This document shows positions 3,693-29,517 of a stretch of DNA of 64,000 nucleotides, piece after piece. Position numbers and translations under genes: made by a program. This stretch comes from Schmidtea polychroa (lineage: Eukaryota), in NCBI GenBank assembly GCA_044892525.1, contig CM097887.1, forward strand, positions 35,526,001 to 35,590,000. Direction: 5' to 3'. The notes under the pieces are model-generated. The model was given only the letters and a program-made list of their open reading frames with translations, did not search any database and was not told where the DNA came from. Each line of letters opens with the position of its first letter. The first letter of the stretch is position 1.

Positions 3693-6096
3693 ACATCTAC
3701 AACTCACGGAGACTTATTTCAAGGATCAGCAATACAAGTAGAGCAACAGTTAATTCGAAAAACTTCACAGCAATTCGAACTCAGTCACAGCAATCGACAT
3801 TCGACGAACTATCATCAGACTAATTTGGAACGACTAACGTTAATTTTCCGATTCAGCCTAATTCCATAGTAAGGGATTTTTATTTATGATATTGTTTTTC
3901 GAAGTTAATAGTAAATATGTATATTTAATGAGCAATTAAACTTTTAAATTTAACCAGACTCTCTTTTCATTTGGTCCTGAATAACGATTTTGATAAAGTA
4001 AATAATTTAAATGTTTAAAAGTATTTATTGGTAACAGGTGAACTCTTACATAATTTTTATGGATATTTATTTTGAAGTGATAGTTTTATGATTTCTAATA
4101 TTAACGAGAAACGTGGCGTTGAGATACTCCATGTCATGGTGTGAGGTGCCTTCGGGAGCTCAGCCGGTGGACATGGAGTATTTCAATCACGCAGCTAGAT
4201 TGGGCCGAAATGTGAAGGCTTCTTCACGGGTCCAATTGCTGAAGGACTTAAAATCTGTCGGAGTACCGAAATATAGACCGAAAGGAAACCTTCTGAAATT
4301 TTCGAAAATAGGATATGTGCTTCACAGCGACTGAGGGAGTTCTCATATTAACTCTGTATTGTCCAGAGTCGTCTTACAAGACATTCATGCCACTTCTGTC
4401 TATAAATCCGAACTTACCATGTGGGGGAAAATACCATTAAACATCCATCGCTGGCTTTTCTAACATATCGAGAAGTTGAAATTGCATTCGGTAGATTTTT
4501 GAAAAAGTAACTCTAATTTAGGTCATCTCTTTCAGATGCGACATTCAAATCCTAGCATATGATGAGGAATTTACAATAAGGGAAAAATAAAACATAAAAC
4601 CACAATAATACTGTATTCAATCACATATATTAACAAAATCTGGTAATACCCATTGAATAATTTTCATGCTGTTGCGTCGAAATATCCACTACTGAAATAT
4701 GCTTCATAGAGTCTAGTTGGCTGGTTCGTAGAGATCTTCCATCGTTCAAAAGCATCCAATATTGAGGAAATTACGAGTCGTAGTAAATAAATCCAACATC
4801 ATAAGCTCAGATGGGAATCGACACGCGATGTAACATTTGCAGTTCGCTCAGTACGGTTGATAGTTACAGATAAAATTTCCATCGAATAGGCACCCATACA
4901 TACAGACATACTGCTAACATAACTATGAGTAGCGTCATCCGGTCAGAAATATGCATGAGAAACAGCAGAATCATTCCGAATGCCTCTCACCGCAGGGAAT
5001 GCCGCCATGTGTCACCCTCTCTAGGATTCTTAGTGTGTGAGTAGTAATCAGTGGTCCTATTAGATAATGCTGACATGAGATGTGACTTCCAGATGACTGA
5101 CTCTTAAATTTCACTACTGATAAAGGCCATTCGTACCACTAAAAAGATAAGCCAAATAACCAGTAACCGACTACTAAGATAAGGGACTCTCTAAAGTGCA
5201 CTCATTAAAGATAATTTTGCTTAAATTAAATATTCTAAATAAAAATCGAAATTGTTGAAGGGGTATTTTAATTAATAATCGAAAATTCAAACCAAACTTT
5301 ATAACTAAACCATAGGAAGTTTTACCTAAGTGTTGTAGAGGTTTATCGTAATTCTAATTAGATGTTACAAATAATAGTAGTAGCCTTCGAGCCAAATTTA
5401 AATTAACTAAAGTATCTACAGGAATTTTTGGGTTATAAAATAGCTAGTAATATTGTAGTTAAATTTCTCATATTCCCTGTAAATGACGTATTGTAATAGA
5501 AAACTAAATCCGATAACAAATTATTATGTAATTACAATATTTTTACGATGCTATATTTCTACGACGATATCACCATATGGTATGGATAAGGGGTAATCCT
5601 AAAATAGTGACGTATAGTTTATACGAAATTACGAGTCGTTACTTATTCCGCTACTTGAAGTGAGGGTGCAAGTTTTTACTAGTTGCATTTGGTCCAAAAA
5701 CCTTATTTTGCATTAGAATAACAACAAATAATCAGCGAAATTTAAACGAAGTGTAGTATAGTGTATTTGTAATGAAATAGGTTTATTCACTCCGGCATGA
5801 ACCAATCCGTCAATTGCCGTTATGTGCGATAGATAGAAATCCAACTCGAACGCGACAGACGAAAATTAAAATTTTTACAAATAATTTGCATTCGTCAGGG
5901 AAGCAATCAGGGCGTTGAGGAATAATTTTTGTAAAGGATACGTAAAATATTAGTAATCAAGGGTGAAGGGAAGGACCCTGTTTCATCGACTCGTCTTGTT
6001 TTCTTCCAGCACTAAGTATCCAATAGCGAATAAACCGTATATCTGATCCGAAATTTTTGGATATAGTCATCATAGTTTTCTTCTTTAGCCATCCAT

Positions 6097-6849
6097 ATGT
6101 TATCAAACCACAAATCAGCTCTACGTCCCTGCTTCTCCTGCTCAGATAAAAATGCAGTGATTACAGATCTCCAAGCCCAGATCGGTCGATATAAACGAAA
6201 AATCGACGAGCTGGAAGGGACATGGTTTAGTCCCGCTCGGATGAAGGAGATCCAAAAGAAGCTCGATCGCAGCGAGCATTGCCGGGACGCGCTAATATCT
6301 GAGAGCCGTGCCCAAAGAAGTCTAATCAGAGAACAATCCGAGGCACTGCATAAGGTTTACGTGCAGGCGGCTACAACCCGAAAAATTGTGCAGATTCCCA
6401 TCCGAGAGGCCGATGACATCTTTCCGCCTCATCACAACCTTTCCTCGAATCCATCTCCACCGTTCAAGAGACCGTGCCGAGACTGCGTCGAAACCGAATT
6501 TTCCCCCAAGCGACCAGATGTTGTCGTCACGGGTACCAGTAAGCCCCCCACTGCTAGTCCATCTGTACCTGTCACCCTTCTGCAAGTGGCATCTTCAAGC
6601 AAACCCAAGCGCAAACAACTCTCTCGTGCAGAGCGCAAGAAGAGACAGCGCGAACGCGCCACTACAAAGCCAAACATCCCATCAATAGAGGGTTCAACCA
6701 ACGGTGGTAACTCTCACGTGTCCATCGACCTAACAACGGGACCCTCAGCACGAATCGTATCAGCCGCTGGCGTAACGTGGGAAGAGAACGCTTCCGAGTT
6801 TTTTAACCTCGACGAATTATTCGCCGACGCTGAATGGGAGAAACAATAG
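6097..6849 (+). CDS. LTR-encoded 250-aa protein (coiled coil, basic NLS-like tract, acidic/aromatic C-terminus)
   Basis: Intact in both LTRs; preceded by pyrimidine-rich ttttcttctttAG and followed by AATAAA at 6973; KPKRKQLSRAERKKRQR; ends FFNLDELFADAEWEKQ. Confidence 0.7.
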   Translation: MLSNHKSALRPCFSCSDKNAVITDLQAQIGRYKRKIDELEGTWFSPARMKEIQKKLDRSEHCRDALISESRAQRSLIREQSEALHKVYVQAATTRKIVQIPIREADDIFPPHHNLSSNPSPPFKRPCRDCVETEFSPKRPDVVVTGTSKPPTASPSVPVTLLQVASSSKPKRKQLSRAERKKRQRERATTKPNIPSIEGSTNGGNSHVSIDLTTGPSARIVSAAGVTWEENASEFFNLDELFADAEWEKQ

Positions 6850-7390
6850 AACCCCAGTGGCGGTCAGGATGAAGAACAAGGATCCGATCTATGTTGATTA
6901 TGATGTTTTCTCTTCTTTCGACAAACATTAGTAAAGTGTACAGCTGAATCCTTGTGTCATAACGTTGAAATTAATAAATCTTGTTGTCTTGCACGTTTTC
7001 GTTCATGAATAATTAGACTTTAATTAAGTGGGTTGAGTAGAGAACCCGCCAGATCTAGTGAGAAATTCCCAATTTGTATTCAGCGAATCCTGATAAGTGG
7101 TTGTGTAAGGAAATGGACGTAAGCCCTTCTAACGGCAGTCGTGAATGGGAAGTCGAGGCCTCAGCAAGGAGTAGTTTTAAGGCAGAAGCTCACCTGCTTG
7201 CTGGCGTCTCGCCTGCATAGTGCAGTACCAACGTGAAGTGATTCACGGGCACTATGTTGGAAGAAAGTTATGTGGGGTTTCACTCCAGGTTGACAAATCG
7301 GTGGCACCTTTTATTCGAGATGGACAATCAACCCTTAGACCCGTCAACATGGTAGAGTGGTCAGCCGAGGTGTAACCCCAACATGATTTT

Positions 7391-7408
7391 TGGGGGCTCA
7401 GCCGGGAT
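7391..7408 (+). promoter_or_regulatory. Primer binding site, tRNA-Pro type
   Basis: TGGGGGCTCAGCCGGGAT is 16/18 identical to the classical tRNA-Pro PBS TGGGGGCTCGTCCGGGAT; 7 nt downstream of the LTR end. Confidence 0.88.
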
Positions 7409-7725
7409 CTACAGTCGATTGAAATTTCTATCAACGAATGCGAAATTTACCGGGATTTTCATACAAAATTAAAGGGATTTATCACATCGATTTTCTGTTT
7501 TCGACCAACCATTGCTTGACGAATGCAAATTGACTATTGATTATTAAATTATATTAGGAACTAAGTAGAGAAAATCAAAATGTGGATAATAGAAAAATTA
7601 AGGATATATATAAATAAAGGAGATAAAGTAGTCAAATTAAATAATTAACAAGGGTTAAAGAAACCAATTAACGAATTAACTATTAATTTACTACATATTA
7701 TTAAAACATTACTTTTCCAACAGCT

Positions 7726-8211
7726 ATGACAGAATTCGCGAACCAAATGCAACAACTGCTCAAGTTTATCGATATAGAAAACGACTCCCTAACAACACTG
7801 ACGCATAAAAGAGAAAAAATCAACGCGATATTACTACAAGCAATCGGACAAACACCAGTCGTACCTAATCATATGATATTAGCCACAGGCCTAAGTCGCC
7901 CAGATGGAAAAATAAACCCCGAAACCGTATATCAGTGGTATCAAGAGAGATTGAACCACCCAACATTAAATCTAGATTATCAGCGTCTAAAAGACTCACT
8001 AAATACAATACCAGATGCAATCGAACAAAAAATACAGGAAAAAGTTAACCAATTACGAACTTGTATAGCCTGTAAACTCCGTCCTATTCGCGTATTATTC
8101 TTGCCGTGTGGACACCTCAGTCACTGTGAAGAGTGTGTAAAAGACCTAAAAAGATGCACGATGTGCAAATATGAAATAAAAGAGACCCATATGGTCTATT
8201 ATGGCGAATGA
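7726..8211 (+). CDS. 161-aa protein with C-terminal IAP/MDM2-type C3HC4 RING (putative E3 ligase)
   Basis: CIAC-x10-LPCGH-x3-CEEC-x6-CTMC near the C-terminus, as in IAP RINGs; acceptor-like ttttccaacAG 2 nt before the ATG; AATAAA at 8316 and 8354. Confidence 0.85.
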   Translation: MTEFANQMQQLLKFIDIENDSLTTLTHKREKINAILLQAIGQTPVVPNHMILATGLSRPDGKINPETVYQWYQERLNHPTLNLDYQRLKDSLNTIPDAIEQKIQEKVNQLRTCIACKLRPIRVLFLPCGHLSHCEECVKDLKRCTMCKYEIKETHMVYYGE

Positions 8212-8818
8212 AACGGCCGGCGATGTAACAGCAAGTATACGATGTTTGAACAAGAATGCATGAAATTGTTGAAGTAACACGTACTGTTAATGATTCAATC
8301 TTTATGTTTATGATAAATAAATTCGTCTTTAAAAAGTTGTGATGATTAGGACTAATAAAATTTGCATGACGAATGAATATTTGCGTGTTTGTTTTGTTTT
8401 ATTTTTTTTTTTCGGAATCAAATGAAGAGAGGGTGGAATAACGTGGAATTAGTCCCAATATAGACTGCAGGGGTACAAACCGAGCCACCTTCGGGCGGTA
8501 CGTCTTATTGCAAGAACCCGTTGGGAGGGGATAACTGATCAACCCAAGTAAGAAGCGTAGGGCGGGGTACCATCGCATATGATGAGAAGTTTTTGCGACA
8601 TGACTGATCACCATGCCAATGTAGAAATGGATCATCGCGATCGTCGTGCGTTTTGAGCAAGGGGGGAAAGGGGAAACACTCCCAAGCGGTAAAGATTAAG
8701 TCGACAAATTAAAGTAGACAGAGAAAATGGTAAACTAGAGTAAAAGAAGAAAAGAGAAATAGAAGCATGCAGAGCGAGGAATATTGAAGCCGAGCTGTCG
8801 AATAATCCAGCTGGTCAA

Positions 8819-9598
8819 GGAGGAAGACTGAGCTGTTGAATAGTGCCAGCCAGTCGTAAGGTCGAGTTGTGAAAAGTCCAACCGATCAGGAAGGAGGAAG
8901 ACTGAGCTGTTGAATAGTGCCAGCCAGTCGTAAGGTCGAGTTGTGAAAAGTCCAACCGATCAGGAAGGAGGAAGACTGAGCTGTTGAATAGTGCCAGCCA
9001 GTCGTAAGGTCGAGTTGTGAAAAGTCCAACCGATCAGGAAGGAGGAAGACTGAGCTGTTGAATAGTGCCAGCCAGTCGTAAGGTCGAGTTGTGAAAAGTC
9101 CAACCGATCAGGAAGGAGGAAGACTGAGCTGTTGAATAGTGCCAGCCAGTCGTAAGGTCGAGTTGTGAAAAGTCCAACCGATCAGGAAGGAGGAAGACTG
9201 AGCTGTTGAATAGTGCCAGCCAGTCGTAAGGTCGAGTTGTGAAAAGTCCAACCGATCAGGAAGGAGGAAGACTGAGCTGTTGAATAGTGCCAGCCAGTCG
9301 TAAGGTCGAGTTGTGAAAAGTCCAACCGATCAGGAAGGAGGAAGACTGAGCTGTTGAATAGTGCCAGCCAGTCGTAAGGTCGAGTTGTGAAAAGTCCAAC
9401 CGATCAGGAAGGAGGAAGATTGAGCTGTTGAATAGTGCCAGCCAGTCGTAAGGTCGAGTTGTGAAAAGTCCAACCGATCAGGAAGGAGGAAGATTGAGCT
9501 GTTGAATAGTGCCAGCCAGTCGTAAGATTGAGTTGTTGAATAGTCCAACCGATCAGAAGGAAGAAGATTGAGCTGTTGAATAGTGCCAGCCAGTCGTA
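8819..9598 (+). repeat. Tandem array of a 74-bp unit, about 10.5 copies (8 identical), in the 5' leader
   Basis: Units start at 8821, 8895, 8969, 9043, 9117, 9191, 9265, 9339, 9413 and 9487; each unit is a 34-bp plus a 40-bp related half. Confidence 0.95.
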
Positions 9599-10855
9599 AA
9601 GGCCTAGAAAAGCGAGAGATAGCAGTTAAGCTACAATGAGATAATATTTAAATTACTAGTGATATGGAATATTAAAGCTAGCTAGAACAAATTGAATGTA
9701 ATTTTGAAAATTCGAGTTTAGAGAGGAAATAAACGAGCTCGTGGAAAAGAAAATAGGATTATAATGAAAAAGGAAAGGGAAGAAGGAAACGAATTAAAGA
9801 GATAATAGAAAATAAAGAATAGATGAAACGATGATAATGAGTAAAGAGGAAAGTAACTAACTAACTAAAGGGATCCCAGTGAAGTAGAGAAACTCTACGG
9901 AATATTTTTTTTGGTTAAACCGGGAAAATGCATTTTATTGGTTCCAGAGTAGAACCGAGCGTAATAATAGTGAATATGAAAAGTAAAATAGCGACAACAG
10001 CGCAAAAGGATTAGGAAAATGAAAGGGGGGTAATAAGCAGAGACCGACAACGACCTATTTTTACTATAATTGATAACGAATAGATAATTATTACGACTTT
10101 ATAGATAATTGTTACTACCCCATATAGATAATTTAAAATCGACGGAAAATACGGGCTGATGGGATATTATAACCCGCAGAAAGGATTTCACAAAAGATAG
10201 GGGAAGCACAAACAGAAACCTAAAAGGTGTCTGTTTTTGAACGTTGTAGAAAGAATGATGAAGTCGTGTAAGCAAATGCAACACGAGATCATTTTTTCAT
10301 TTTAGATATCAAGCCAATCCAGCCAACCAAGACAATCCAGAACCTGCACAAAAGGAATTCGAAGAAATCGACAATCAACCAAGGATAAATCCATTCAGAA
10401 CCCGCACCGAGAGACACAGCAACCGGAAGACTCCCGAACGGAAGAAGTATTAGCAGCCATCTGCCAAGGATTAGAAACACAATCAGAACCGAACGCGACC
10501 AATTCAATAGCCGCTAATTACCAAGAAGCGTAAGAAAGGAATCACGGATAAACCCAATCTTAGATCTTCAAGTAAGCCAGGAGACGTATTATTTTCAGGA
10601 GACGAATTACAACAACTCAAAAGAGGACGATCCATTAAACATCAAAGAGGAATATCACAAGGATCCAGAAGAACCAATCAAGTACCCATATTTGACCAAG
10701 AAAATCTCGGATATACCCCTAGTCGATCTCGAAGTAGAGAAAGTCTGTCCGATATCACTAATAGTTTAGCAACGTCAACCGAAGAATTATCAGCCCAAAG
10801 TTTAGTCACATCGTTAGACAATTTAAAAGAAACAGACGAACCTAGAACACCAATC

Positions 10856-20700: not shown

Positions 20701-23700
20701 GCCAGACCAAAAAGCTAAAACAATCGCAAAAATTTTGGTAGAAGAGATATGTTGCCGATATGGAACACCAAAACAAATCTTAACCGATCAGGGAACTAAT
20801 TTTATGAGTGAGATAATGAGCGAAGTAACAAATTACTTCAAAATAGCAAAACTAAGAACATCTCCATACCACCCTCAAACCAATGGGATGACGGAAAGAT
20901 TTAATGGAACACTTATACAAATGTTATCAAACTACGTTGACCGTCACCAACGAGATTGGGATGAATATATAAACCTATGTCTTATGGCGTACAGAATGTC
21001 GATTCACGCATCAACGAAAATGAGCCCATTCAAATTAATGTACGGAAGAGAATGTAATATGCCAATGGACCTGGAATACCAACCACCGATATCGCAGTAT
21101 ATGGAGATCGATGATTATGTTACGAAATTCAAGGAAAGAATGCAAGAAATTTGGGAAACTGCGGGATTAAATATCAAGTTCTACCAGGAAAGTTATAAAG
21201 ATTTACACGATCGAAAGAAAAACGTGAAGCAACATACGTTCCAAACAGGTGATTGGGTAATGATAGAAACCCCGGAATTAATTCCAGGAACCACAAAAAA
21301 GTTACAACGCAACGGAAAAGGACCATATGAGATCTTATTCGTAGGCGAAACTAATGTAAGAGTGAAATTGGTAAATAACCCCTTTACCAGACCAATATAC
21401 GTAAACGTGGCACGATGCAAATCAATTCCAAAAACAGCCACTAGTCAACCAGAAGGCCGTACATTAACCACACGTTCGCAAACCTACCGAATGAACATGA
21501 TGCAACAACTCGCGGAACCGATCACTGGACGATTAGGTATCCAACCATCAGAAGCGGAAAAGATTGTAAAAGAGGTAAAAATTAGAATACCTGGATGGGC
21601 AAAAGATCGATTAGATTTCGAAATATTAGGAGGATTATTGACGATGATCGAGAACTATGCAAATAGAGAAAGGACACACCCATTATTGCGAGTAGTCAAA
21701 AGCCAATGGCCAATATTATTTACAATAACAGATCATTACGGAGACACACCATTACACAAACTCATGAAAGTAGGTAACAACGAGCAAATACTAGAAACAA
21801 TAGAAGCATTTCACGACTGCAAGCGATCAACAGAACAAACAAACAACCAAGGTTACACACCATTAATGATAGCCGCAAACAGAGGCAAAACCAAAGACAT
21901 TATAACCGCATTACTCGATACCGGATCGAAAATAACTACACAAGACCACGAGCGGAAAAACGCTCTACATCATGCTATCGAAGGGAGAAGTACCGAGGCG
22001 TTCACGTCATTGATGGAACTACTATCATATGAGGACAATCGGGAAGTCGGAAACATGTATGATGGATTATTAACAGCGACCAAAGAAAAACTGACAACAA
22101 TTACCGGAATATTAATTACATGGAGAAATCCAATTCGAAACGATTATATGATCAACGTAAACGAAGCGTTCACGAGAGGAGAGAACACGCTGATGAGAGA
22201 AGCTATGAAAGGACATCATTTATTCGAAATTCCGAATCAATTACTAGAACGAGGGATAAAATTCACAAATCATAAAGACGAACAGTTAGCAAAAAAGCGA
22301 ATCGACACATTCGAAAAATCCCTATTCCAATTTACTAACCAAGTACGAAATAAATATTGGGAAACGGTAAGTGTGTTATATATGATGGACACAATGAATA
22401 ACATCCGCGAGAATTACCTGGATATTATCCAAATACTTACAGCAGAGGAACGAATCAATAATCCAAACGGAAAGAAAACGAAAATAAGGTATGGGAAATC
22501 AAGGGAACCAAAATTGACAACGAACCAAAAGGTCACAAATAACGTCATCGAAACAAAATCAATGAGTATAGATCAGGAGGCAATAATACGCAAAGCGAAA
22601 GAGGTATTCTTTGAGGAAATGCTAGAGCTGCCAGACGACATAATATTGTCCAAAATAATAAAAGCCGTACACACATACGCAAGAGATCAAACCACGGATT
22701 TGGATATCGGGAAAATCAAAACCTTCTTGCCTCGAGCATTTACGATGATAACGAAGGATTCCAGAACACCCCTACAACAAGCAATACTAGCAGCGAAAGA
22801 AAATAGAGCAATAACGATCGTGAGAATCCTTGGAGAGATGGGCGAGGAAACCAACACGAAAAATGAACAAGGTGAAACCGCTATGATGTATGCAGCTATA
22901 ACGAAAATACACCCAAAAACACTCCACATCCTACATCAATCAGGATCGAAACTAGACGAAAAGTCCAATGAAGGAAATTCCACCTTGGACTGGGCAACCA
23001 TACAGCCAAACTTAGAAATGATCAGATTTATTTGCAAAAATGCGACAAAAGAAGAAGTTGAAAATATGTGCAAAAACACATCTCAGTTTCAATGGAATAC
23101 GGTACGGAAAAATCTAGAAGCAATGAAATTATTATTAACCTGGAGAGTACCACAAAATAATAAATATGCGATAAATGTAAACGAATTCTACGAAAACGGA
23201 GAAAATGCGATGGTAAAGAATACCCTAACTAAGGGGGGGACGCCTAAAATTATTTTATTAGTATTAAATAGAGAAGACCTAAAATTCACGCAAAATCAGA
23301 ACGAGCAACAACGAATTGGGAAACATCGTCGTATGCAATTGAGAGAGTTAGTTAAAGAATGGAATAGAAAGAGACATGCTGCAACGGGTAGAAAAGAGTT
23401 TGAATTCGAAGCAAAATTAGCAAGAAACAGAGTGCTAACAGCATATCGCAGATTATTGAACGATATAAATGTCGAGGACGACATTTTAAACGACAGCGGG
23501 GGAGATAAACACGATGACAATAACGGAAAAGGCCGAAAGGAGGATAAAGAGAAAAGAGAACCGGAGGAGGGTAAACCGGAAAACAAGGATTCGGATACGA
23601 AAAGAGAGGGAAACAGCCCGGGAACTAAGACCAAAGAGGAGGAAAAATCGAATAATGGAAAACAGAGGGTATGCCTACCTTTCACTAACAAAGAAATAGA

Positions 23701-24709
23701 GACAAATATGATATTAATGATAATTATGCTTACCATGATAGAGTTAGTAACAGCTCATGGAGGGACGAGGACGATAAAAGAAACCAAAGAAGCGGAGAAT
23801 CAAGATAGCAAAGAGGACGAACTAAAACAAGAAAAGAAAAAGCAAGCACAAGAGCAGCAGTGGGATTTAAAGGAAGAATGGGACTTAAAGGAAAGGTGCA
23901 TACTAGGAAGATGCATGTCTAGAGCGTATCAGAAACTAGTACTGATAAATGAGGACACAGAACCAATAACAGAAGTAAGAATACAAGAAGCATACCGAAA
24001 CCGAGACGGGAAAAGAATAACGAACGTTAAAGGAAAAGAGGTACACCTAGGAAAAGGTGGCGAAGTAGTAATAACGCAGCTCCAACCAAGAAAAGAGCAC
24101 AAAGTCTGTATTTCAAGATTAGGACCGGGTGAGAGATGCCATCAATATGTGACGCAGCAGCAGCCCCCGAAGGAATATACGGTTTGTATCTGGAGAAACG
24201 AATCAAAAAGAGAATGCCGACGATACCCGGGGAAAAGAGGAAAGAAAAGGAAAAACCACGACGAAAAGGACGAAGGAGGAAAGCACAAGAAAACTGGTGA
24301 GGAAGCTCAGGACAACTATGTTTCGGAGGAAGAGATGGAAAAAATACAAAAGATGGCAAAGGAGGGTATGAACGAGGAAATAGCAAGAATACGGGAAATG
24401 ATGAAAGGAAATGGCAAAAGAGGAAACGAGAAAAGTACAGAAGCGATATCAACATTAACAAACAAGGAAAAACCAGAGAGTATAAGCGTGAAGCAGATGA
24501 TGTGGATCAGTGGGATAATAATAACAGGGGCATTCCTAATCATAACGGGGGGAACAATAAAAATAATTAAAGATAAACGACATCGCGGAGAACTAGAAAT
24601 GACCCGAATCAGAAACTTCCAACATCGAGTGAAACGACCAAGTGATATCAAACAAGGACAGTGGGTGGAGGCCTGGAACGTTCAGCGCCCTCCAAACTCA
24701 CGTATATAG
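10856..24709 (+). CDS. gag-pol: 4,617-aa Gag-accessory-Env-Pol-accessory polyprotein (single ORF)
   Basis: Uninterrupted ORF with capsid MHR-like RKQRANESITLY, 3 CCHC, protease DTG, RT YIDD, RNase H TDAS, and integrase HHCC + DDE + GPY motifs. Confidence 0.97.
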   Translation: MTNVVKTDEYKEKFRGEPFNGNANKLATFITNFEVYITVCGWTPEAISKRMPLFLCDSALEVYLEAKERDTKLEKWEDIKTFLKKTFGASKPINQALGELANRKQRANESITLYASELRRLAKKAMNGKLPEENLIGYFIEGLRREEVRASVGCQMCKTLEEAIDWATRCELHLPAQMNIMQEEGRIATAIAKADNGDNNNQEPKMNQFIPGAHQIFKPPQGRSNGNNGNRNNPNNENNFNNRRNMNDNKQCRTCGKPGHWDRDCYRNSNCNRCGRRGHTENVCQLRGCFNCGQPGHISRDCRERGQQQRPPQRNNNYIANPQRQSNPNEGKQMNVMQEISQMKQMMQQMMRPRQESAPQQTQNIRMMRSTENLNNYEVHQHVQEWQRLQAEEERIKQERNQQRQEQPLRINMMKLVKDMKSQYCYNYGKSPRVVPMTEPEKVKEITTEMKTENSTTISKGNQRIQKIFWKKIKDKIEKEHNKAKTETEDENNKSEEQTSQLNHQMLQESESEETTIFERKKLKRVPRMRNLQINMMKRTKDVASSDEEEDYVSSLGGEILQPNEISEPSKGEIKEEESGNEITSESEDEDIEIKLRKAREEAIKQVAEILPVVVRNQEFIDVIPFRRFVQKVMKLERNEKDLIPNEEKSIIKNYMEKMKQADTTRYVIKIGTSRGLERMWIKNTVTDELFDWIREHLGSSRKKEYLYQYQGEQIKPDMHLVDALIWPGETQILKLHKEKQPANLYDWAKDAKAEYDFNIKLKLEQIKQCTLRRNLDKLIKQIQEQVEDNWDLLITRRAPAMYELMSRLRDTEMLRMSDWRTINLIHKYGRLKETQPQRLEITIWLPNEEKRRIKMSNQSTVDDLVSKINQEITEKVRSESSDGMVDDVVMMYDKIILRAEDDTSLSEMGMWDNHQIIRIVPMDEFRTRDVTYQKEIRDRMKTLYQKSTEIIEIHQQWLKEKELQGKITKLNTRSCRRTPWERVWNAENKEWEIRKGIFVETDIGETESESEEEEEEPPEYEEEAREQTSDDESETDVTSESENEARHIHAMRKKEREYADMDGEEATEAREREEKERYKQLGDILAMGAKNQKRQVVALANIILKTSENIHNLRGMAKAIEEYRQYNEWYPEQLEQIIRKWRNQEWAQDTQERYHIRIKYPDKSIEELEVHPTTKIRELKKKLAYETPFHLQLFGKSLDDNADVGITPMRLEETNVLTMAETLGKPLKRKSKIIKPTKGSLSTPSPNKAPSKSNETEEVEEIILEDSDDEPGERSPLLVRWPTGAEMWTNNQPSTSYQQPTKLNIKEIIDNTTETETDEQFQKQREPTKVTPESQTDKIIDEWNEWLRNNDSSLPRTDNERNPNYENTREAGTMMEKRAKGRPKKQGEKSEFKTKEQLKQEQGQVRLEKLDKIVWDLKEAQPTIERGEKWIRELLKDMLIITNPQLRRLWQRKVASTEARQLWHTISGIIPRLIKEKTKTTKTDWDETKRVIEQLTTNANDDEHHLVVITYLMYNLMGLAARKIPNKQFANHVEMTVSIIENTIEPHIIRAGGWKRLIQAPRKNEQERSMQVRLKKLLNELEWELPMKDPASRKASINSLMMTMMIWMLCTSGATGFTIYDCDNMIMRDKYSLRDIEECRQASPNKLDIVRTKVTYHVYQESDFIRTQARECVVSKKVLAYYCGQYSYSTLILPGLDKEIVSIQREDCKELFRTGALKMHNGVTIHGQTGMIKTESVYVSGKVKSSDGSCNGGTYTIRGEVISGVVVIESYTVELKEYEAQFDANNYQMKTNPACKATENVCRTGVSTIIYEANTQKCRLQLLKSALFNEVKGEIYENENDEDGNDRVRMRNGKPMPPSPREKRLSTQKTPTALITDDPDLGMRFIKEKETTKCDSIVYKTNYAGIYMSRQIIDRAVGKIATEDVKLYLYANNKMDFLFHRGQTTLQKVYYDLIQNDCSLNKEILKTKLAIAITHPDNTMPSLPLPDGHFGRMVGEVMYTYQCTKTYARMPEKSILPEKRCANELEIRYKGQNRFVQPVTRIMNPVGFYPNLFNCSNAYGPLYERPDGKWMMLPGKTISEEPKKFGLIELATELDFKPIDVSNGGMYSPEDLETARLNVLFPARRESILSNMVTITGGTNYQSGPNYELLLSPDHFQQATSNMMKAMWGRFLVFGQMMAGILGIILIIQIVRVILTQMLACFDIYKREKKVNWKMIVGFLPFLAKTMVLHGHSKDIHRIKRLIKILTKIKGTDEEVGRRFRKVMYDEATRRQLKKNKPKFLDRFRSQSSNSDSDDDDNGNDKCLYPNRNPNEKPMETAPYWEKEKTNTWIANGSYIPPDIVGPQAALTMTQNMYPQLPSQPGMHYMPTRRTKSVDQADDVRTIAAMSLPGGPAVTVMIQINGKETNAMIDTGANVSAIAINQIPSKHWKDIESTTIHIIACSKETVDVVGRWWTTLRYQDNEIETYLAVIPKLSVPCIIGTDLMPELLKEVVIDLTTMCLKDKTGRICKMNAVIRCPEKIIVPAKSQMICQIKVDTGMEGEVIFEPSKSFEKRRELPLAREIITINQEGVIPLNITNFEEEDKIIYENEKLGRLTPMMDIELPKVTNEMIKDDELWTIDSMLLTNDEKKKLHRLLVEYKDIFAISDLDLGTCDVTLHAIPLIDETPIALRPYKLAEMQKEIAEAEVQKMLDAKVIEPSCSPWQFPVVMVKKKDGTQRFCIDYRKLNAVTKRDTYPLPDINEMLLMLQGAAYFTSLDLKSGYWQIKVKDEDKEKTAFTLGRDLYQFRKMPFGLTNAPASFQRCMNFVTHGIKQCMVYIDDLLIYSATFEQHLEDIRNVFIRLRQWKLKLKPSKCDWAKEKVTFLGHIVSAKGKEPDPRNIEKIKTCPAPKTVTQVQEFLGLCGYYRKFIKNYAGIAKPIQELVKKDISFIWEKEQQQAFETLRDKLIEAPILVHPDFKKPFLLATDASGYAAGAILGQLDDEGKERVIGYYSRTFKKHEKNYSVTEREALAIIQAIKHFRYLLWGHEICITTDHQPLVWLGQHKEASSRLMRWAMQLQEYSPFIKFKAGRANANADCMSRFIFPDLVDSEMQRICLIVAEDLDFCQLRKDQQEDAELKQIIDYVKTGKTEVYAKDQKLKEHMDKHRHRYIIEKDWLLIMDGEKRLMCIPENRRKELLTQYHDGRLGGHMSSKKTLARMKQKYFWPTLTEDVTEWVKNCLTCTTRKNTGSKWKAPLTPMPVPIEPMTMISMDVVGPLPESDKGNVYILVITDFLTKFPEAFAMPDQKAKTIAKILVEEICCRYGTPKQILTDQGTNFMSEIMSEVTNYFKIAKLRTSPYHPQTNGMTERFNGTLIQMLSNYVDRHQRDWDEYINLCLMAYRMSIHASTKMSPFKLMYGRECNMPMDLEYQPPISQYMEIDDYVTKFKERMQEIWETAGLNIKFYQESYKDLHDRKKNVKQHTFQTGDWVMIETPELIPGTTKKLQRNGKGPYEILFVGETNVRVKLVNNPFTRPIYVNVARCKSIPKTATSQPEGRTLTTRSQTYRMNMMQQLAEPITGRLGIQPSEAEKIVKEVKIRIPGWAKDRLDFEILGGLLTMIENYANRERTHPLLRVVKSQWPILFTITDHYGDTPLHKLMKVGNNEQILETIEAFHDCKRSTEQTNNQGYTPLMIAANRGKTKDIITALLDTGSKITTQDHERKNALHHAIEGRSTEAFTSLMELLSYEDNREVGNMYDGLLTATKEKLTTITGILITWRNPIRNDYMINVNEAFTRGENTLMREAMKGHHLFEIPNQLLERGIKFTNHKDEQLAKKRIDTFEKSLFQFTNQVRNKYWETVSVLYMMDTMNNIRENYLDIIQILTAEERINNPNGKKTKIRYGKSREPKLTTNQKVTNNVIETKSMSIDQEAIIRKAKEVFFEEMLELPDDIILSKIIKAVHTYARDQTTDLDIGKIKTFLPRAFTMITKDSRTPLQQAILAAKENRAITIVRILGEMGEETNTKNEQGETAMMYAAITKIHPKTLHILHQSGSKLDEKSNEGNSTLDWATIQPNLEMIRFICKNATKEEVENMCKNTSQFQWNTVRKNLEAMKLLLTWRVPQNNKYAINVNEFYENGENAMVKNTLTKGGTPKIILLVLNREDLKFTQNQNEQQRIGKHRRMQLRELVKEWNRKRHAATGRKEFEFEAKLARNRVLTAYRRLLNDINVEDDILNDSGGDKHDDNNGKGRKEDKEKREPEEGKPENKDSDTKREGNSPGTKTKEEEKSNNGKQRVCLPFTNKEIETNMILMIIMLTMIELVTAHGGTRTIKETKEAENQDSKEDELKQEKKKQAQEQQWDLKEEWDLKERCILGRCMSRAYQKLVLINEDTEPITEVRIQEAYRNRDGKRITNVKGKEVHLGKGGEVVITQLQPRKEHKVCISRLGPGERCHQYVTQQQPPKEYTVCIWRNESKRECRRYPGKRGKKRKNHDEKDEGGKHKKTGEEAQDNYVSEEEMEKIQKMAKEGMNEEIARIREMMKGNGKRGNEKSTEAISTLTNKEKPESISVKQMMWISGIIITGAFLIITGGTIKIIKDKRHRGELEMTRIRNFQHRVKRPSDIKQGQWVEAWNVQRPPNSRI
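12851..14515 (+). other. Three ubiquitin/SUMO-like beta-grasp domains within the polyprotein (12851-13063, 13370-13618, 14318-14515)
   Basis: The third copy, YHIRIKYPDKSIEELEVHPTTKIRELKKKL..LQLFGKSLDDNAD, parallels ubiquitin [41 protein letters not shown]; the other two share the pattern more weakly. Confidence 0.65.
15077..15540 (+). other. Bcl-2-like helical domain within the polyprotein
   Basis: About 150-aa helical segment ending IEPHIIRAGGWKRLI, matching the BH2 motif (WIxxxGGW); BH1 NWGR is degenerate. Confidence 0.6.
15640..17560 (+). other. Chuvirus (Jingchuvirales)-like envelope glycoprotein within the polyprotein: signal peptide, about 550-aa ectodomain, TM anchor
   Basis: Hydrophobic LMMTMMIWMLCTSGATG then FTIYDC..YSLRDIEEC..C..YCGQYSYS..REDCKELFRTG..DGSCNG..LYLYANNKMDF..YYDLIQNDCSLNKEILKTKLAIA..GEVMYTYQC..GGMYSPEDLE..LFPARRESIL..MWGRFLVFGQMMAGILGIILII. 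This is collinear with chuvirus G motifs (YDC..SLLDVxEC, HCGxxS, FAYVNSKF, CxLExxVL, GEVxxxxxC, SGIYTxxDL, MFPxE, WxxFxxFGxxSAG). Confidence 0.85.
18040..18350 (+). other. Retropepsin aspartic protease domain
   Basis: VMIQINGKETNAMIDTGANVSAI (DTG at 18086) and CIIGTDLM. Confidence 0.93.
18830..20100 (+). other. Reverse transcriptase and RNase H domains (Ty3/gypsy)
   Basis: SPWQFPVVMVKKKDG..RFCIDYRKLN..YPLP..LDLKSGYWQ..MPFGLTNAPASFQR..YIDD (19304); FLLATDASG..EREALA..TDHQPL..ADCMSR. Confidence 0.97.
20330..21420 (+). other. Integrase (HHCC, DDE core, GPY/F module)
   Basis: HDGRLGGH..CLTC; SMDVVGPL; LTDQGTNF; NGMTERFN; GKGPYEIL. Confidence 0.96.
21730..23040 (+). other. Two blocks of ankyrin repeats downstream of integrase (about 21730-22030 and 22760-23040)
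   Basis: GDTPLH, GYTPLMIAA..LLDTGS, KNALHHAI, RTPLQQAI, GETAMMYAA..LHQSGS, GNSTLDWA. Confidence 0.85.
23708..24709 (+). other. C-terminal type I membrane module: signal-like segment, FN3-like ectodomain, TM helix, basic tail
   Basis: MILMIIMLTMIELVTA (23708-23755); VVITQLQPRKEHKVCI resembles FN3 strands E-F (xITGLxPxTxYxVCV); TM MMWISGIIITGAFLIITGGTIKII (24497-24568) then KDKRHR. Confidence 0.6.
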
Positions 24710-24869
24710 AAAGGAATATGACTGTATATAATTGTAAAAAGTAAGTATATCTTATGTATATAACAGTACTATATCTTTATATAAGCGCGGTATCAATATT
24801 ATACAATAACGGGAATCATAAAATAAAATTAAATTTACATAAGAGTTGAAAAGTGTATATAAATTAGGA

Positions 24870-25229
24870 ATGGATCAAGGAAATAACGAAATGAACCACA
24901 ATACAGTAACTGAAGAATTATGGAAGCAACAATGTGCCGTATTAGCACAATTAGTGTCCAATTTGCAAGAACAAGGACTGACGATGCACAGAAACCTGAT
25001 CGAGAGTATGAACAGAGGATTTAGTTATTTGAAGATAATTGAAGACCAGAGGTTAAAAATCGAACAAATGCAAAGAGAGATAGAGAGGATAACCCAATAT
25101 AGCCGTCGACAGGAAATTGAAATAGACAGAATGATGGAGGAAGCAGAACAGACAGAAATAGAAGACTGGTCGGAATGGCTAATGAATAGAGAGGAGAGCG
25201 GACACGAAGCCGACTCTTCCGAACCCTAA
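24870..25229 (+). CDS. Small coiled-coil protein with acidic C-terminus (about 119 aa from ATG 24870)
   Basis: ORF in element orientation; heptad-like LKIEQMQREIERI; ttAG just before the ATG, TGTAAATAAA after the stop. Confidence 0.6.
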   Translation: MDQGNNEMNHNTVTEELWKQQCAVLAQLVSNLQEQGLTMHRNLIESMNRGFSYLKIIEDQRLKIEQMQREIERITQYSRRQEIEIDRMMEEAEQTEIEDWSEWLMNREESGHEADSSEP

Positions 25230-25314
25230 ACCAAACCTAGCTTAAAATGTAAATAATTGTAAATAAAATATCGAACCTGTATCGATAAGAACTATTTGTA
25301 CATATAATTATAGA

Positions 25315-26703
25315 ATGGATAAACGACAAAGAGAAGAGTTCAGAGAGATTGTCGAGCAAGTCCGAAAATCTACAACGATCAGAATACACAAACATGTTAT
25401 GTGCGGAATATGTGAAAAGTTGTTAAAGGAACCTCACCAAACGCAATGTGGATGCAGAGTATGTAAAGAATGTATCAGTGAAGCAATAAAGAATAGACCA
25501 CAAAGGTGCCCGGTGTGTAAAGAGACACTAATATCGAGTTTAGAAGATACTAACGAGGATAAAGCCGCAGTGAAAGACATGTTAAACACCAACCTGGGAT
25601 GCAAAAATGCCCCATGCGAATGGAAAGGAGTAATATGGAAGGTAGTACAACATATGGGAGCATGTATGTACAGAATTGGCCAGTGTGAAAGGTGCCATAA
25701 AACCATTCGAGCAAGCGAAGAAAAAGAGCATCAAAGGCAGTGTGAAGAGAGATTGGAAAGATGTGAACACTGTGGAGAAATAGATACGTGGATAAATCTC
25801 ACCCTCAAACATCACAATGTCCAAGAGGAGAGAGTATGTGCAGAGTTCAGTGGGGAATGCCCAAACGGATGTAACCAAGGGGAAATAATGAAGGTGGCAC
25901 AGCATCTAAGAGAATGCGAAAAGAAAAGAATGACATGCGTACTAGGTAGATGGGGTTGTCAGAAATTACTACACCGAGGTGAGTTACCACATCATTTAGT
26001 AGAAAATGCTTCAACTCACGCAGAAATGTGGTCGACTGCGTTACAAGAAAGCGAAGAGAAAGTAAAACAAATGGAGATAGAGATAACATCGTTGAAAGTG
26101 TTAGTCAAAGAACTACTAGAAGAAAGGGAAGCGTTCGAAGAAGCCCGAGCAAACATAAAGATGCAAATAAACCGAACAGAAATTAGTAATAATCAGGCCA
26201 AGGAGCTACATCAGAAAATACGGGAAATAAATCTAAATGAGATAACCCCAACAGCACCCTACATATGGAAAATAACGGGAGTAAAAGAAAGAATACGAAA
26301 AGCAAAAACCGGAGAAGAGACAAGAATAACAAGTCCTACATTCCATTCTTGGAAAAATGGGTACAAAATGAAAATGAAGATATATCCCAACGGGGACGGA
26401 ACCGGATTAGATACGCACTTTTCGATTTTCTTTCTGTTATGTAAAGGAGAATACGACGAAATATTAGAATGGCCGTCCCAGGCAAAAATCGATATTACTC
26501 TGATGAACAACCAAAGTATATATGAGCAAAGCTTCAAAACAACGGGGAATCAAATAGCTTACCAGAGGCCCCTCAACGAAGAAGGATCAGCAACAGGAGC
26601 ACCTACGTTCATCTCACAACAAAGAGTAGAAGATATGGCGAGAAATGATACCATATATATCAAGATGACCGTGAGGAAAGAGGAGAAGGGTAGAACGGAG
26701 TAA
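25315..26703 (+). CDS. Full-length intronless TRAF-family protein (RING, TRAF zinc fingers, coiled coil, MATH/TRAF-C), 462 aa
   Basis: CGIC..L.EP.QTQCGCRVCKEC..CPVC; C.N..CEWKG..H...C zinc fingers; GYKMKMKIYPNGDGTG..THFSIFF..KGEYDEILEWP..G.PTFI..NDTIYI. Confidence 0.95.
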   Translation: MDKRQREEFREIVEQVRKSTTIRIHKHVMCGICEKLLKEPHQTQCGCRVCKECISEAIKNRPQRCPVCKETLISSLEDTNEDKAAVKDMLNTNLGCKNAPCEWKGVIWKVVQHMGACMYRIGQCERCHKTIRASEEKEHQRQCEERLERCEHCGEIDTWINLTLKHHNVQEERVCAEFSGECPNGCNQGEIMKVAQHLRECEKKRMTCVLGRWGCQKLLHRGELPHHLVENASTHAEMWSTALQESEEKVKQMEIEITSLKVLVKELLEEREAFEEARANIKMQINRTEISNNQAKELHQKIREINLNEITPTAPYIWKITGVKERIRKAKTGEETRITSPTFHSWKNGYKMKMKIYPNGDGTGLDTHFSIFFLLCKGEYDEILEWPSQAKIDITLMNNQSIYEQSFKTTGNQIAYQRPLNEEGSATGAPTFISQQRVEDMARNDTIYIKMTVRKEEKGRTE

Positions 26704-26896
26704 CCAATCGAATAATGTTGTATATAATAATCTGTATATATCGGTGTATATAACCAATAAAATATTATATAATAATAGTATGAAAACCCTAAATACGAAA
26801 ACCCAAAAATGATGCGAAAATTCCCCAAGAAACAGTAAATAATGAATAAATTCCTTTTTCATAATAAAAAGATTAATCGATGTCTATGATTTAGAG

Positions 26897-27952
26897 ATGA
26901 CACAAGAGAAAATAACCGAAACTGCGATAGACCCAACCAAGGTCAACAAGACACAAATTCCCCGAGAACATAACAAAAAATGGAACAAAGTAATGTTCCA
27001 ACTAACTAATCTCACCCGAAATCACATCGAAGAAACTAGAGAAGATGAGAATGGTCAATACCAATGGTTAATACACAACTTAAGAGCGGAAGCAGAAGCA
27101 TGCAAAAGAGCATCAAAATGGGCGTCACTGGAAAATACCCGCCAAGAAGCACACAGCCACTACTTAAAGCAGCTAGTGCAGGAAGCGAGAAAGAGACTTA
27201 CCGATGAGAACACCAAGCGCGAAGCGGAAAAGCAAATAGAAGACAGGAAAATGATGCACTTAGTGGCAGAAGCGAGAAAATGGAAAAGACAAAACAGAGA
27301 AATGAAAAAAGAGATGAAAGAATTGCCCATGAGACTCGGATACGAAAGCGAACAAGGTAAATGGGAGGAGAATTTAATAATAAAGGAAGAATTGAAAAGG
27401 TTGAGAAAGGTCGCCGCCCGAAGCCAAACCTGGCAAACAAAGGCTATGGAGTTTGAGCGACATTTGGCAATGAAGTGCGACATAAGAGAGCACGAGAATG
27501 CCGCAATGGAAGAGATGATAACCCAACAAGCGGGACGGGTTGTGGAATTAGTAAATCAGGTAGAAGAGATGAAAAGAGACCTTAATGGATTACAAGGATC
27601 GCTGGAACAAAGAAACATGGTCCTAGCGGGAAAAAACAGAAAATTAGAAAACGAAAGGAAAATGTACACCGAAAATATTAAAAACTTAGAAATAGAAATT
27701 GAAAAATGGAAGGGCGACGAGAAAATCAAAGCCCTAGACAAACAGATAGAGGCGAAAGATGAAGAGACAAGGTATCTCACCTATCTGCTCGACGAGGAAT
27801 TGAATATCACTCGAGCTCTAAGAGACGAAGTTAGTGAATTGAGAGCTCAAATTCCCCAATATTACCTACCATACGACCCTATTGCGATACAGTTACATTC
27901 CGCGGTCGATAGTGATGAAGGTTATGTAGGCCAGGAGGAAACCTTCGTATGA
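26897..27952 (+). CDS. 351-aa coiled-coil protein, unknown function
   Basis: Long ORF in element orientation, E/K/R-rich helical composition. Confidence 0.7.
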   Translation: MTQEKITETAIDPTKVNKTQIPREHNKKWNKVMFQLTNLTRNHIEETREDENGQYQWLIHNLRAEAEACKRASKWASLENTRQEAHSHYLKQLVQEARKRLTDENTKREAEKQIEDRKMMHLVAEARKWKRQNREMKKEMKELPMRLGYESEQGKWEENLIIKEELKRLRKVAARSQTWQTKAMEFERHLAMKCDIREHENAAMEEMITQQAGRVVELVNQVEEMKRDLNGLQGSLEQRNMVLAGKNRKLENERKMYTENIKNLEIEIEKWKGDEKIKALDKQIEAKDEETRYLTYLLDEELNITRALRDEVSELRAQIPQYYLPYDPIAIQLHSAVDSDEGYVGQEETFV

Positions 27953-28121
27953 GGGTGGATGAAAAGATGAAAAACTAAAAACCGGGACGTATATCCCAAA
28001 CAAAAAAATTAAAGTACAGTAAAAGTATTTGAGGGACTGTAACCCTGTGTAAATAAAAACGATATAAATGTATAAGTATAAGTCGCACTGTAGCGCATGA
28101 TTAATTGTAAATATTATAGAT

Positions 28122-28820
28122 ATGAAAATCGAGGAAATGATAGAAATTATGAGCGACGTAGAAGAGGGAGAGATTGAGGCAGGAACAACAGAAACACAAA
28201 CGCTAAAGGCCGAGTTACGGGAAGAGAAATACGAAAACGGGAGATTAATAAACAAATACCTGGAGGACCGGAAAATGATAAAGGTGTTAAAGAAAGAGTG
28301 CGAAGCGTTGGGGGAAATAAAAAGAGAAACGGAAGAGGAAAATGAATGGCTACACGAACAAAGGAAGCGAGGGAAAAACTGGGAAAAGATAGCGGAAGAA
28401 CTATGGAAAGAGAGGGCAAGCTTCAAAGCAAAGGAGGTAATCCAAGACTACTGGAAAACTGAGGCGAAGGAGCGCCAAACAGCTATAAATAAATTAAAAC
28501 GACAACTAGAAGAAAACCAACGGGAAAGTAAAGAAATGAGGAAGTGGGTCCGCAAATATAGAGAAATAGAAAGAAAACATCAACAACAAAATTACCTGCA
28601 AGAAAACGAACAAGATCTCCTACAAATCGAGCTAAAAAGAAACCTTGAAAAGAAAAGGGAAGAAATTAGACGCTTGGAAAAAGAAATTAGACATCTAAAG
28701 AGAGAAGCCCGTGAAAAAGACCGACAATTGGAAATGCTGCCCGAGTTAAGACACAGGGTAATTAAAGCAGAGTCCACCTTGATGAGAATCGGCGAAAATA
28801 ATCCAAATCAGAACCATTAA
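28122..28820 (+). CDS. 232-aa coiled-coil protein, unknown function
   Basis: Long ORF, E/K/R-rich heptads. Confidence 0.7.
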   Translation: MKIEEMIEIMSDVEEGEIEAGTTETQTLKAELREEKYENGRLINKYLEDRKMIKVLKKECEALGEIKRETEEENEWLHEQRKRGKNWEKIAEELWKERASFKAKEVIQDYWKTEAKERQTAINKLKRQLEENQRESKEMRKWVRKYREIERKHQQQNYLQENEQDLLQIELKRNLEKKREEIRRLEKEIRHLKREAREKDRQLEMLPELRHRVIKAESTLMRIGENNPNQNH

Positions 28821-28860
28821 ATTAAGGGTCATTAAAACCAATTGTAAATAAACATAATGA

Positions 28861-29517
28861 ATGTATAATAGTATCATGCGAGGCGAGATGATGATAACAA
28901 TGATGGTATTGATGATTCTGATGGAGAGCAAACAAATAGACGCCCAACCGAAAATCGTACGAGATTACCGAAATCAAAATCAAGAACCTAAACAAGAATC
29001 CAGTCAATGCACATACCCGATGACCGTAAAAACCCATATCATCCAAACCATTCAATCAACCCGATCACACATCAACAACATCCAAACAATGTGTAAAAAG
29101 AATCCCATTTGTAAAATGATAAACAAACAAATCCTCGAACAAATTCAACAATTCGACCAGTTGGAACAACAAATGCAACAAGAGAATTTTGGAAATCTGG
29201 TAGAAAAGCCAAAAATACCTCCCGAAATCAATGACACCCATTATCTCATATATGTGGTGATCGCAGAAACCCTCCTCCTATGTCTACCAATATTCATGAA
29301 AATTTACGAAGTTCGAAATAGATGTAGAGTCTCGACATCAATAAGAGTAACCTCGAACCAAAATCCTCAAGAAGTGCCCCTGACAAATCTTAACCGACCT
29401 CGAACCCCGAGTAATCAACCAATCCAGCCGAAATCTAATAGTCAGACCTATCTCAACATCAATACCCAAACCAACCAACAGCCGCCAGCAGAAGCATCAA
29501 TGGTTAACAGTTCATAA
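28861..29517 (+). CDS. 218-aa putative type I membrane protein (signal peptide, helical Cys-containing ectodomain, TM, Q/N/P-rich tail)
   Basis: MMITMMVLMILMES..IDA signal-like segment; TM YLIYVVIAETLLLCLPIFM; AATAAA at 29624. Confidence 0.7.
   Translation: MYNSIMRGEMMITMMVLMILMESKQIDAQPKIVRDYRNQNQEPKQESSQCTYPMTVKTHIIQTIQSTRSHINNIQTMCKKNPICKMINKQILEQIQQFDQLEQQMQQENFGNLVEKPKIPPEINDTHYLIYVVIAETLLLCLPIFMKIYEVRNRCRVSTSIRVTSNQNPQEVPLTNLNRPRTPSNQPIQPKSNSQTYLNINTQTNQQPPAEASMVNSS

Follow-up and report, generated by a model that had tools for sequence, protein, structure and literature searches.

The window analysed here is a stretch of 64,000 nt from Schmidtea polychroa (assembly GCA_044892525.1, contig CM097887.1, positions 35,526,001 to 35,590,000), and our subject is how the genes of one giant retroelement within it, at 3224-33902, are expressed. 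The element totals 30,679 bp and is bounded by two long terminal repeats (LTRs) of 4,160 bp each, with 2 mismatches between them; the 5' LTR (3224-7383) has TG...CA ends and a 4-bp target duplication, ATAG, and the 3' LTR lies at 29743-33902. All features of the element described below are on the plus strand. The LTR contains an open reading frame (ORF) of 250 amino acids (aa) with a basic stretch and no Pfam match (6097-6849, second copy at 32616-33368), and just downstream of the 5' LTR lies a RING-finger ORF of 161 aa (7726-8211; PF13920, E 3e-11). A polyprotein of 4,617 aa follows (10856-24709), with Pfam matches to Gag (residues 52-145), CCHC, a fusion glycoprotein in the env position (1868-2207), protease (2397-2488), reverse transcriptase (2710-2868), RNase H (2956-3060), integrase (3243-3340) and ankyrin. 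Downstream of it is a 3' cassette of five genes: a 119-aa ORF without a Pfam match (24870-25229), a TRAF-like ORF of 462 aa with RING and MATH domains (25315-26703; PF22486, E 4e-26), ORFs of 351 aa (26897-27952) and 232 aa (28122-28820) without a Pfam match over cut-off, and a 213-aa ORF (28876-29517) that varies among copies far more than its neighbours.

Burro, or GYPSM1, of planarians is a giant gypsy-like element of more than 30 kb with a huge polyprotein in which env lies in frame between gag and protease, and with ankyrin repeats, MATH/TRAF and RING cargo and separate accessory ORFs (PMC6431247). By every testable feature of that published description of architecture and domains, the element in the window is a Burro-type giant LTR retroelement: it is longer than 30 kb with LTRs of several kb, and ankyrin, MATH and RING matches were found in this copy, with no Pfam match in it to a BIR domain. 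The original prediction, made from the letters of this DNA, had proposed that the accessory ORFs form an operon-like unit resolved by spliced-leader (SL) trans-splicing or, as its second option, by alternative splicing from an LTR leader.

Within the 5' LTR, the TATA box of a putative promoter (3587-3594) is followed by an ATG-free leader exon of 28 nt (3615-3642), whose start we place from the TATA spacing and the length of its copy, and by a first intron of 50 nt (3643-3692) that begins at an AG/GTAAG donor. This donor, at 3643, is the only AG/GTAAG on the plus strand of 3474-29742. The intron closes with a perfect repeat of the leader (3665-3692), the last letters of which are the proximal acceptor. 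The unit of TATA box, leader and donor recurs in 18 of 20 diverged LTRs whose surrounding sequence is only 72-77% alike, with the TATA box 55-57 nt upstream of the donor and an intron of 46-54 nt. Each of these 18 LTRs copies its own leader into its intron tail (exactly, over 24-32 nt, in 17 of them), and the leader copy begins about 30 nt past the TATA box, where a TATA-directed start would fall. A putative promoter, a short leader and a donor, the components of a common-leader unit, are found together in 18 of 20 LTRs; the leader is AUG-free except in four of the 18, where an ATG stands at its very start. Additional pyrimidine-tract acceptors lie within the LTR at 4535, 4995, 5024 and 6009, the first with an ATG directly after it and the last 79 nt before the acceptor of the LTR ORF, such that the LTR may have additional exons.

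Each of the three 5' genes has a candidate acceptor. Before the LTR ORF, a pyrimidine tract (6074-6088) ends in a YAG that lies 5-10 nt before the ATG in 13 of 13 mappable LTRs (20 fetched); before the RING ORF, a T-tract (7709-7723) ends in a TAG 2 nt before the ATG in all 15 true mappings (20 fetched). Upstream of the polyprotein (10292-10305) is an acceptor stronger than any other; it was absent from the sites listed in the original prediction, and is present in 14 of 20 fetched 5' regions. The 550 nt between it and the polyprotein ORF (10306-10855), a putative mRNA 5' untranslated region (UTR), are free of ATG, as are the 550-687 nt after the acceptor in 14 of 15 sequences, for an expectation of 6.9-9.0; an equal length upstream of the acceptor has 9-17 ATGs. 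Given the acceptor at 10305 and the ATG-free stretch behind it, the polyprotein is likely to be made from a spliced mRNA.

Related copies carry what appear to be traces of leader splicing in their DNA. In two elements, which are close copies, the first intron is lost exactly from both LTRs, and its loss from both points to an event during reverse transcription. Of 16 close LTRs picked by hand, 9 lack a 31-nt segment (3693-3723) that follows directly on the leader copy and ends in AAG, and wherever both LTRs of an element were checked, both lack it; the segment is present in two diverged forms elsewhere, which argues that it was lost, not gained. The simplest reading of this AG-bounded absence would be that the leader was spliced to an AAG serving as alternative acceptor and that the product became fixed in DNA, in few events, since the nine LTRs probably share ancestry. 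Small AG-bounded differences also occur just behind the leader copy (6 nt in L040 and L041, 4 nt in L071), and these suggest repeated shifts of the proximal acceptor.

In the 3' cassette, an AG precedes each ORF at the end of a short gap: AG 24866-24867 in gap 1 (24710-24869), and TAG at 25311-25313 in gap 2 (25230-25314), 26892-26894 in gap 3 (26704-26896), 28117-28119 in gap 4 (27953-28121) and 28869-28871 in gap 5 (28821-28875). All seven AG-to-ATG pairs reported in the original prediction are at the positions given, and all seven accessory ATGs have a YAG 1-8 nt before them, as do 134 of the 604 plus-strand ATGs of the element (0.22). For the 213-aa ORF this uses the second in-frame ATG (28876), the first (28861) having no YAG. 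The product of the per-ORF shuffle probabilities is 3e-6, which is optimistic since the 1-8 nt window was picked after the fact. We compared 20 copies, chosen across the 82-91% range of MATH matches and with 80-93% DNA identity, which with the window make 21; the near copies are related, and counts over them are not independent. Before the TRAF-like, 351-, 232- and 213-aa ORFs, the YAG is found in 21 of 21 copies, with exchange of TAG and CAG and a spacing of 1-4 nt. Before the 119-aa ORF, a YAG is found in 3 of 21 and an AG, mostly AAG, in 21 of 21, so that conservation of YAG extends to four of the five cassette genes. An acceptor therefore precedes each ORF, with AAG in place of YAG at the 119-aa ORF. 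If the 31-nt loss described above was a splice, AAG is usable as an acceptor, which bears on this gene.

Two more distant elements gave a similar picture: a far relative (22-36% identity of accessory proteins) has five YAGs and one AAG before six cassette ATGs, and a relative at intermediate distance has four YAGs and one AAG before five. The cassette acceptors are pyrimidine-poor (0.36-0.64), and the mean for the leader-type acceptor is 0.44. At the four genes with YAG, the last 60 nt ahead of the ORF contain out-of-frame ATGs in 14, 17, 7 and 15 of 21 copies, which argues for removal of this sequence and against unspliced mRNAs from local promoters. We conclude that the YAG/AG signal before these genes is real as judged from its conservation. 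Gap 1 also has the word TATATAAG at 24778 and, at 24741, the donor-like sequence AAA/GTAAGT, whose GTAAGT lies 81 nt before the AATAAA of the polyprotein and was not found in the far relative. At the foamy virus LTR a U1 site damps cleavage (PMC3694450), and we speculate that the GTAAGT could act in the same way, or be a second donor. Gap 2 has a word, TATCGATA (25272-25279), that is kept in most copies. We take this word to be DRE-like.

The poly(A) signals fall into two groups. Every AATAAA reported in the original prediction (eight of eight) is where it was placed, and three sites look complete, convincingly so on the basis of a U/GU-rich downstream stretch: 6973-6978, the likely poly(A) site of the LTR at the R/U5 border; 8316 and 8354, within 8316-8415; and 29624-29680, 119 nt before the 3' LTR. 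The T fraction downstream is 0.42, 0.62 and 0.58 at 6973, 8354 and 29624, and 0.18-0.36 at the other sites. By dinucleotide shuffling, the chance of an AATAAA per gap is 0.08-0.30 at these three sites and 0.44-0.87 in the five cassette gaps, where the hexamer occurs at 24822, 25262, 26756 (also 26845 and 26863), 28052 and 28847. In the A-rich cassette gaps the hexamer is thus near chance, in line with the accompanying warning that AATAAA is common in AT-rich DNA; the idea that each AATAAA is a poly(A) site has support at the three complete-looking sites and is no more than a possibility in the cassette. AATAAA is kept in 19, 20, 21, 14 and 13 of 21 copies in gaps 1 to 5; in the far relative it is missing from one of six gaps and from the last UTR. 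AATAAA is not depleted in the polyprotein ORF (17 found, 18.8 +/- 3.3 expected).

The original prediction had pointed out that three of the hexamers are part of TGTAAATAAA, as is indeed the case at 25258, 28048 and 28843. It belongs to the wider motif UGUAHAUA, known as the Pumilio response element (PMC4995099), of which the five gaps, 662 nt in all, contain 12 copies (24723, 24755 and 24854 in gap 1; 25248, 25258 and 25297 in gap 2; 26719, 26733 and 26745 in gap 3; 28048 and 28106 in gap 4; 28843 in gap 5), compared with 0.58 in shuffles (at most 4 in 2,000) and none on the minus strand. There are none in 6,368 nt of other non-coding sequence of the element, and none in its ORFs, where 1.2 are expected and a test for depletion was negative. 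Over the 21 related copies, the fifth base of 220 instances is A in 75, C in 19, T in 126 and G in none. At four of the five gaps the first UGUAHAUA lies 14-23 nt past the stop codon, and the two distant relatives have 8 each for about 0.6 expected. The motif is thus enriched on the sense strand of untranslated RNA, as would be expected of a Pumilio target. A genome-wide pattern of paired UGUAHAUA before a YAG-ATG gave 29 matches, as compared with 99 in a reversed control, and was uninformative. CFIm recognises UGUA. The clusters are likely to bind a Pumilio-type (PUF) protein or, through the UGUA, might alternatively be read by CFIm.

We propose that each gene, the Gag-Env-Pol polyprotein included, is probably expressed by cis-splicing of the one 28-nt LTR leader onto a chosen acceptor; we hold this strongly for the three 5' genes and with moderate confidence for the five cassette genes, which lie 21-25 kb from the donor. 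Transcription from one LTR promoter, starting near 3615, would give a long RNA. Joining of the donor to the acceptor 50 nt away would use up the donor and leave an RNA of near-genome length for packaging; reverse transcription could then restore the intron by means of the leader copy at its tail. If the leader skips to 6088, 7723, 10305 or a cassette AG, a separate mRNA would result for each gene, its ATG lying 1-8 nt past the joint, or 550 nt past it for the polyprotein. The 3' ends would likely be formed at 6973, 8316/8354 and 29624, and perhaps also in the cassette gaps; the genomic RNA would have to read through 6973, 8316/8354 and 29624. The UGUAHAUA clusters, together with their predicted binder, could tune the stability, translation or 3'-end choice of the cassette RNAs. 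More tentatively, the whole may amount to a programme in the style of adenovirus late expression, in which a single 28-nt LTR leader serves eight acceptors up to 25 kb off, a self-copying decoy intron spends the donor and so spares the genomic RNA, transcripts end at internal poly(A) sites, and a dozen predicted Pumilio elements place the element under the host stem-cell regulator Pumilio, or soak it up.

Several observations weigh against this proposal. Deletion between the two leader copies can equally give exact intron loss; indeed, L031 lacks the intron and the LTR upstream of it (L051) has it, a possible one-sided deletion between repeats. Similarly, a template switch could be the source of the 31-nt loss, and the DNA traces are limited to acceptors at most 81 nt from the donor. 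Genome pattern searches for the leader joined to a distant exon found none, their one match being an intron-less LTR, and no leader-to-distant-gene join is among the 100 of 242 matches listed from a further genome pattern; leader-to-distant-gene RNAs would be without the primer-binding site, so no such copies are expected via the LTR route. The leader has an ATG at its very 5' end in 4 of 18 LTRs, a crude U1 score ranks four sites above the donor at 3643, and the ORFs show no clear depletion of donor-like sites (16, with 23.3 +/- 4.3 expected). To reach the cassette, the donor would have to bypass 21-25 kb of sequence with strong acceptors and poly(A) sites, and gap 1 conserves its own TATATAAG (19 of 21 copies) and GTAAGT (20 of 21). 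Finally, no leader-to-cassette junction was observed. In contigs of four sequencing runs over 23500-29740 (two guessed to be RNA, two of unknown kind), GT..AG ends were found at none of the 15 joints listed (17 in total), and none of the 24 loose ends listed (279 in total) fell at the five cassette AGs. Rare forms are lost from contigs, and the labelling of runs as RNA is guesswork, so that this result counts neither way. One joint that ends at 25314 starts at TG and comes from a run of unknown kind; we read it as a diverged copy.

It is possible, if doubtful, that the 3' cassette is instead an operon resolved by the host SL, with the RNA cleaved behind the polyprotein or started at the TATA of 24778, the SL joined at the YAGs, and the LTR leader reserved for the 5' genes. 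The cassette gaps measure 55-193 nt and have their AATAAA 23-66 nt ahead of the AG, a spacing that is operon-like and fits same-strand genes with gaps of up to about 300 bp; in Macrostomum this spacing peaks near 100 bp (PMC8629364). The reported gap range of 40-190 bp describes the cassette well and does not extend to the 5' genes, which are separated by 876 bp (LTR ORF to RING) and 2,644 bp (RING to polyprotein). Internal cleavage would deprive the downstream acceptors of a cis donor, and the first cassette gene, which alone lacks a conserved YAG, has a TATA upstream (TATATAAG). SL RNAs are present in Schmidtea species (PMC10899757), cis- and trans-splicing use common acceptors in flatworms (PMC12582326), and the gypsy element Cer1 produces an SL1-spliced mRNA (PMC3315495). 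On the other hand, the UUNYAG acceptor motif, which was derived from parasitic flatworms (PMC12582326), is found at only 2 of 7 acceptors, and an AUG at the end of the SL would not share the frame of the ORF at any of the 8 acceptors in the window copy; over the 21 copies, it would do so in 2 of the 84 combinations of copy and gene at the four genes with YAG. Donors lie upstream in cis at 3643 and 24741, and the SL is stated to lose out to a donor in cis (PMC4558846), although internal poly(A) cleavage could still uncouple these donors from the acceptors. The AATAAA of the cassette lacks a U/GU-rich downstream stretch, persists at two gaps in no more than 13-14 of 21 copies and is missing from one of six gaps in the far relative, where the TATATAAG of gap 1 was likewise not seen. 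On the evidence of DNA, either the LTR leader or the host SL could be joined at the cassette acceptors. For the element as a whole, the sequence favours the LTR-leader route over the operon route with which the original prediction had led, given the conserved TATA-leader-donor unit, the splicing traces in DNA, the strong polyprotein acceptor, the scarcity of UUNYAG and the frame of an SL-terminal AUG; the SL is retained as an option for the cassette, and the earlier interpretation is thus partly supported.

We consider it unlikely that the cassette genes are transcribed singly, each between a small promoter and a poly(A) site of its own in the manner of compact DNA viruses, with the AG serving as start-codon context and UGUAHAUA as a DNA promoter motif. 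TATA-like words do occur in gaps 1 and 4 (19 and 21 of 21 copies), TATATAAGC at 24778 is identical to the LTR TATA of relatives, and the window copy has no ATG from there to the 119-aa ORF. By contrast, a TATA at workable distance is found in none of 21 copies in gaps 2 and 5 and in 3 of 21 in gap 3, ATGs lie in the would-be UTR of the 119-aa ORF in 8 of 19 copies, and many copies have out-of-frame ATGs 11-25 nt ahead of ORF starts; local promoters would also leave unexplained why the 5' genes have acceptors and a UTR free of ATG. Least probable of all, to the point of being very hard to credit, is that the motifs are chance products of AT-rich DNA. The shuffling result for the AATAAA of the cassette gaps (0.44-0.87 per gap) fits this view, and counts over the related near copies lack independence. 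For YAG and UGUAHAUA, chance is already contradicted: the YAG persists despite divergence of the flanking bases and the proteins, UGUAHAUA occurs at 12 for 0.58 here and 8 for 0.6 in each of two relatives, and the polyprotein UTR has no ATG.

Other features bear on the life cycle and history of the element. An 18-mer at 7391-7408 resembles a primer-binding site, perhaps one for tRNA-Pro; no tRNA gene was found within the window. If transcription starts near 3615, priming at 7391 would give a minus-strand strong-stop DNA of about 3.8 kb, and R would be about 3.4 kb and enclose the LTR ORF, both of which are unusually long. The sequence just before the 3' LTR (29715-29742) is conserved in all copies seen yet not purine-rich, so that the plus-strand primer would not be a typical polypurine tract. 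About 11 copies of a 74-bp unit form an array at 8817-9560, between the RING gene and the polyprotein acceptor. The protein of the hypervariable 213-aa ORF ranges from about 90% to less than 30% identity to that of the window in copies whose TRAF ORFs are 85-95% identical, and by eye it starts with a hydrophobic, signal-peptide-like stretch. The family is young and large, with at least 97% identity in 67 of 150 scored matches to the MATH region, out of 1,455 candidates. A profile search with the fusion protein for other cassette-bearing families found a compact family without a multi-gene cassette. In the far relative, where the TRAF and polyprotein frames are broken, the cassette has an extra gene of 393 aa with a RING match (L087:1102-2283) and its own TAG directly before the ATG.

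In the flanks of the element, a host NDUFA6-like LYR gene (1970-2278, minus strand) lies 945 bp from its 5' end and, as had been noticed, has tttAG 1 nt ahead of its ATG. To the right, ORF fragments resemble by eye a Polinton-type capsid and DNA polymerase B (39317-40459 and 47283-49844), 43303-45609 encodes what by eye is an intact-looking 768-aa hAT-type transposase, and hAT-like fragments lie on the minus strand at 52060-52344 and 61438-62028.

Burro is abundant in planarian genomes and carries regulators of apoptosis and ubiquitin. In the literature that we searched (on Burro, on SL trans-splicing and retrotransposons, and on Pumilio and retrotransposons), which did not extend to Grohme et al. 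2018, we found no description of how its accessory ORFs are expressed; in the portions of the text covered, 'splic' does not occur in PMC8532177, nor 'trans-splic' in PMC11410931. What the window contributes is the absence of ATG from the putative polyprotein UTR, the trace at the AAG and the clustering of predicted Pumilio sites. The LTR-leader reading predicts exact junctions that can be checked in planarian RNA-seq, above all from piwi knock-down, in which Burro is derepressed. The UGUAHAUA clusters likewise offer a concrete connection, open to experiment, from the element to a regulator that acts after transcription.

Foamy and other complex retroviruses make spliced pol and accessory mRNAs and use an LTR poly(A) site. 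The element resembles complex retroviruses in that its genes appear to be expressed from spliced subgenomic RNAs, and foamy viruses in that the major splice donor precedes the poly(A) signal within the LTR (PMC3694450). Unlike foamy viruses, it has good-looking internal poly(A) sites (8316/8354 and 29624), apparently needs a spliced mRNA even for Gag, and carries a leader copy in its first intron. With Burro/GYPSM1 as described it shares length, polyprotein order, ankyrin, MATH/TRAF, RING and accessory ORFs; the account in the parts of PMC6431247 that we draw on is of domains only and does not touch on the expression of accessory ORFs. In the window, TRAF has an ORF to itself past the polyprotein, in a five-gene 3' cassette. 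As in flatworm SL operons and Cer1 of C. elegans, there are short same-strand gaps, acceptors just before the ATG, and an LTR element that may be able to use the host SL (PMC12582326, PMC8629364, PMC3315495); unlike these, there is a strong cis donor upstream, most acceptors miss UUNYAG, and no SL junction was seen, no search for SL-capped retrocopies having been made. The motif of the gaps matches the Pumilio response element (PMC4995099) as an exact 8-mer; it is found on the sense strand only, with A, C or U and never G as fifth base, but is clustered between retroelement genes, mostly 14-23 nt past stops, and its binding is predicted. The closest parallel to the proposed programme may be the adenovirus major late unit, with a primary transcript of about 28 kb, in which one promoter supplies an AUG-free common leader to many mRNA bodies with several poly(A) sites (PMC7851563). 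Adenovirus, as a DNA virus, need not keep and reverse-transcribe its full-length RNA, whereas the leader proposed here is a single 28-nt LTR exon with predicted junctions. If the proposal is correct, a retrotransposon lineage has arrived at the expression logic of adenoviruses and complex retroviruses, and the scheme would also suggest how the full-length RNA avoids being spliced at the acceptors that it carries.

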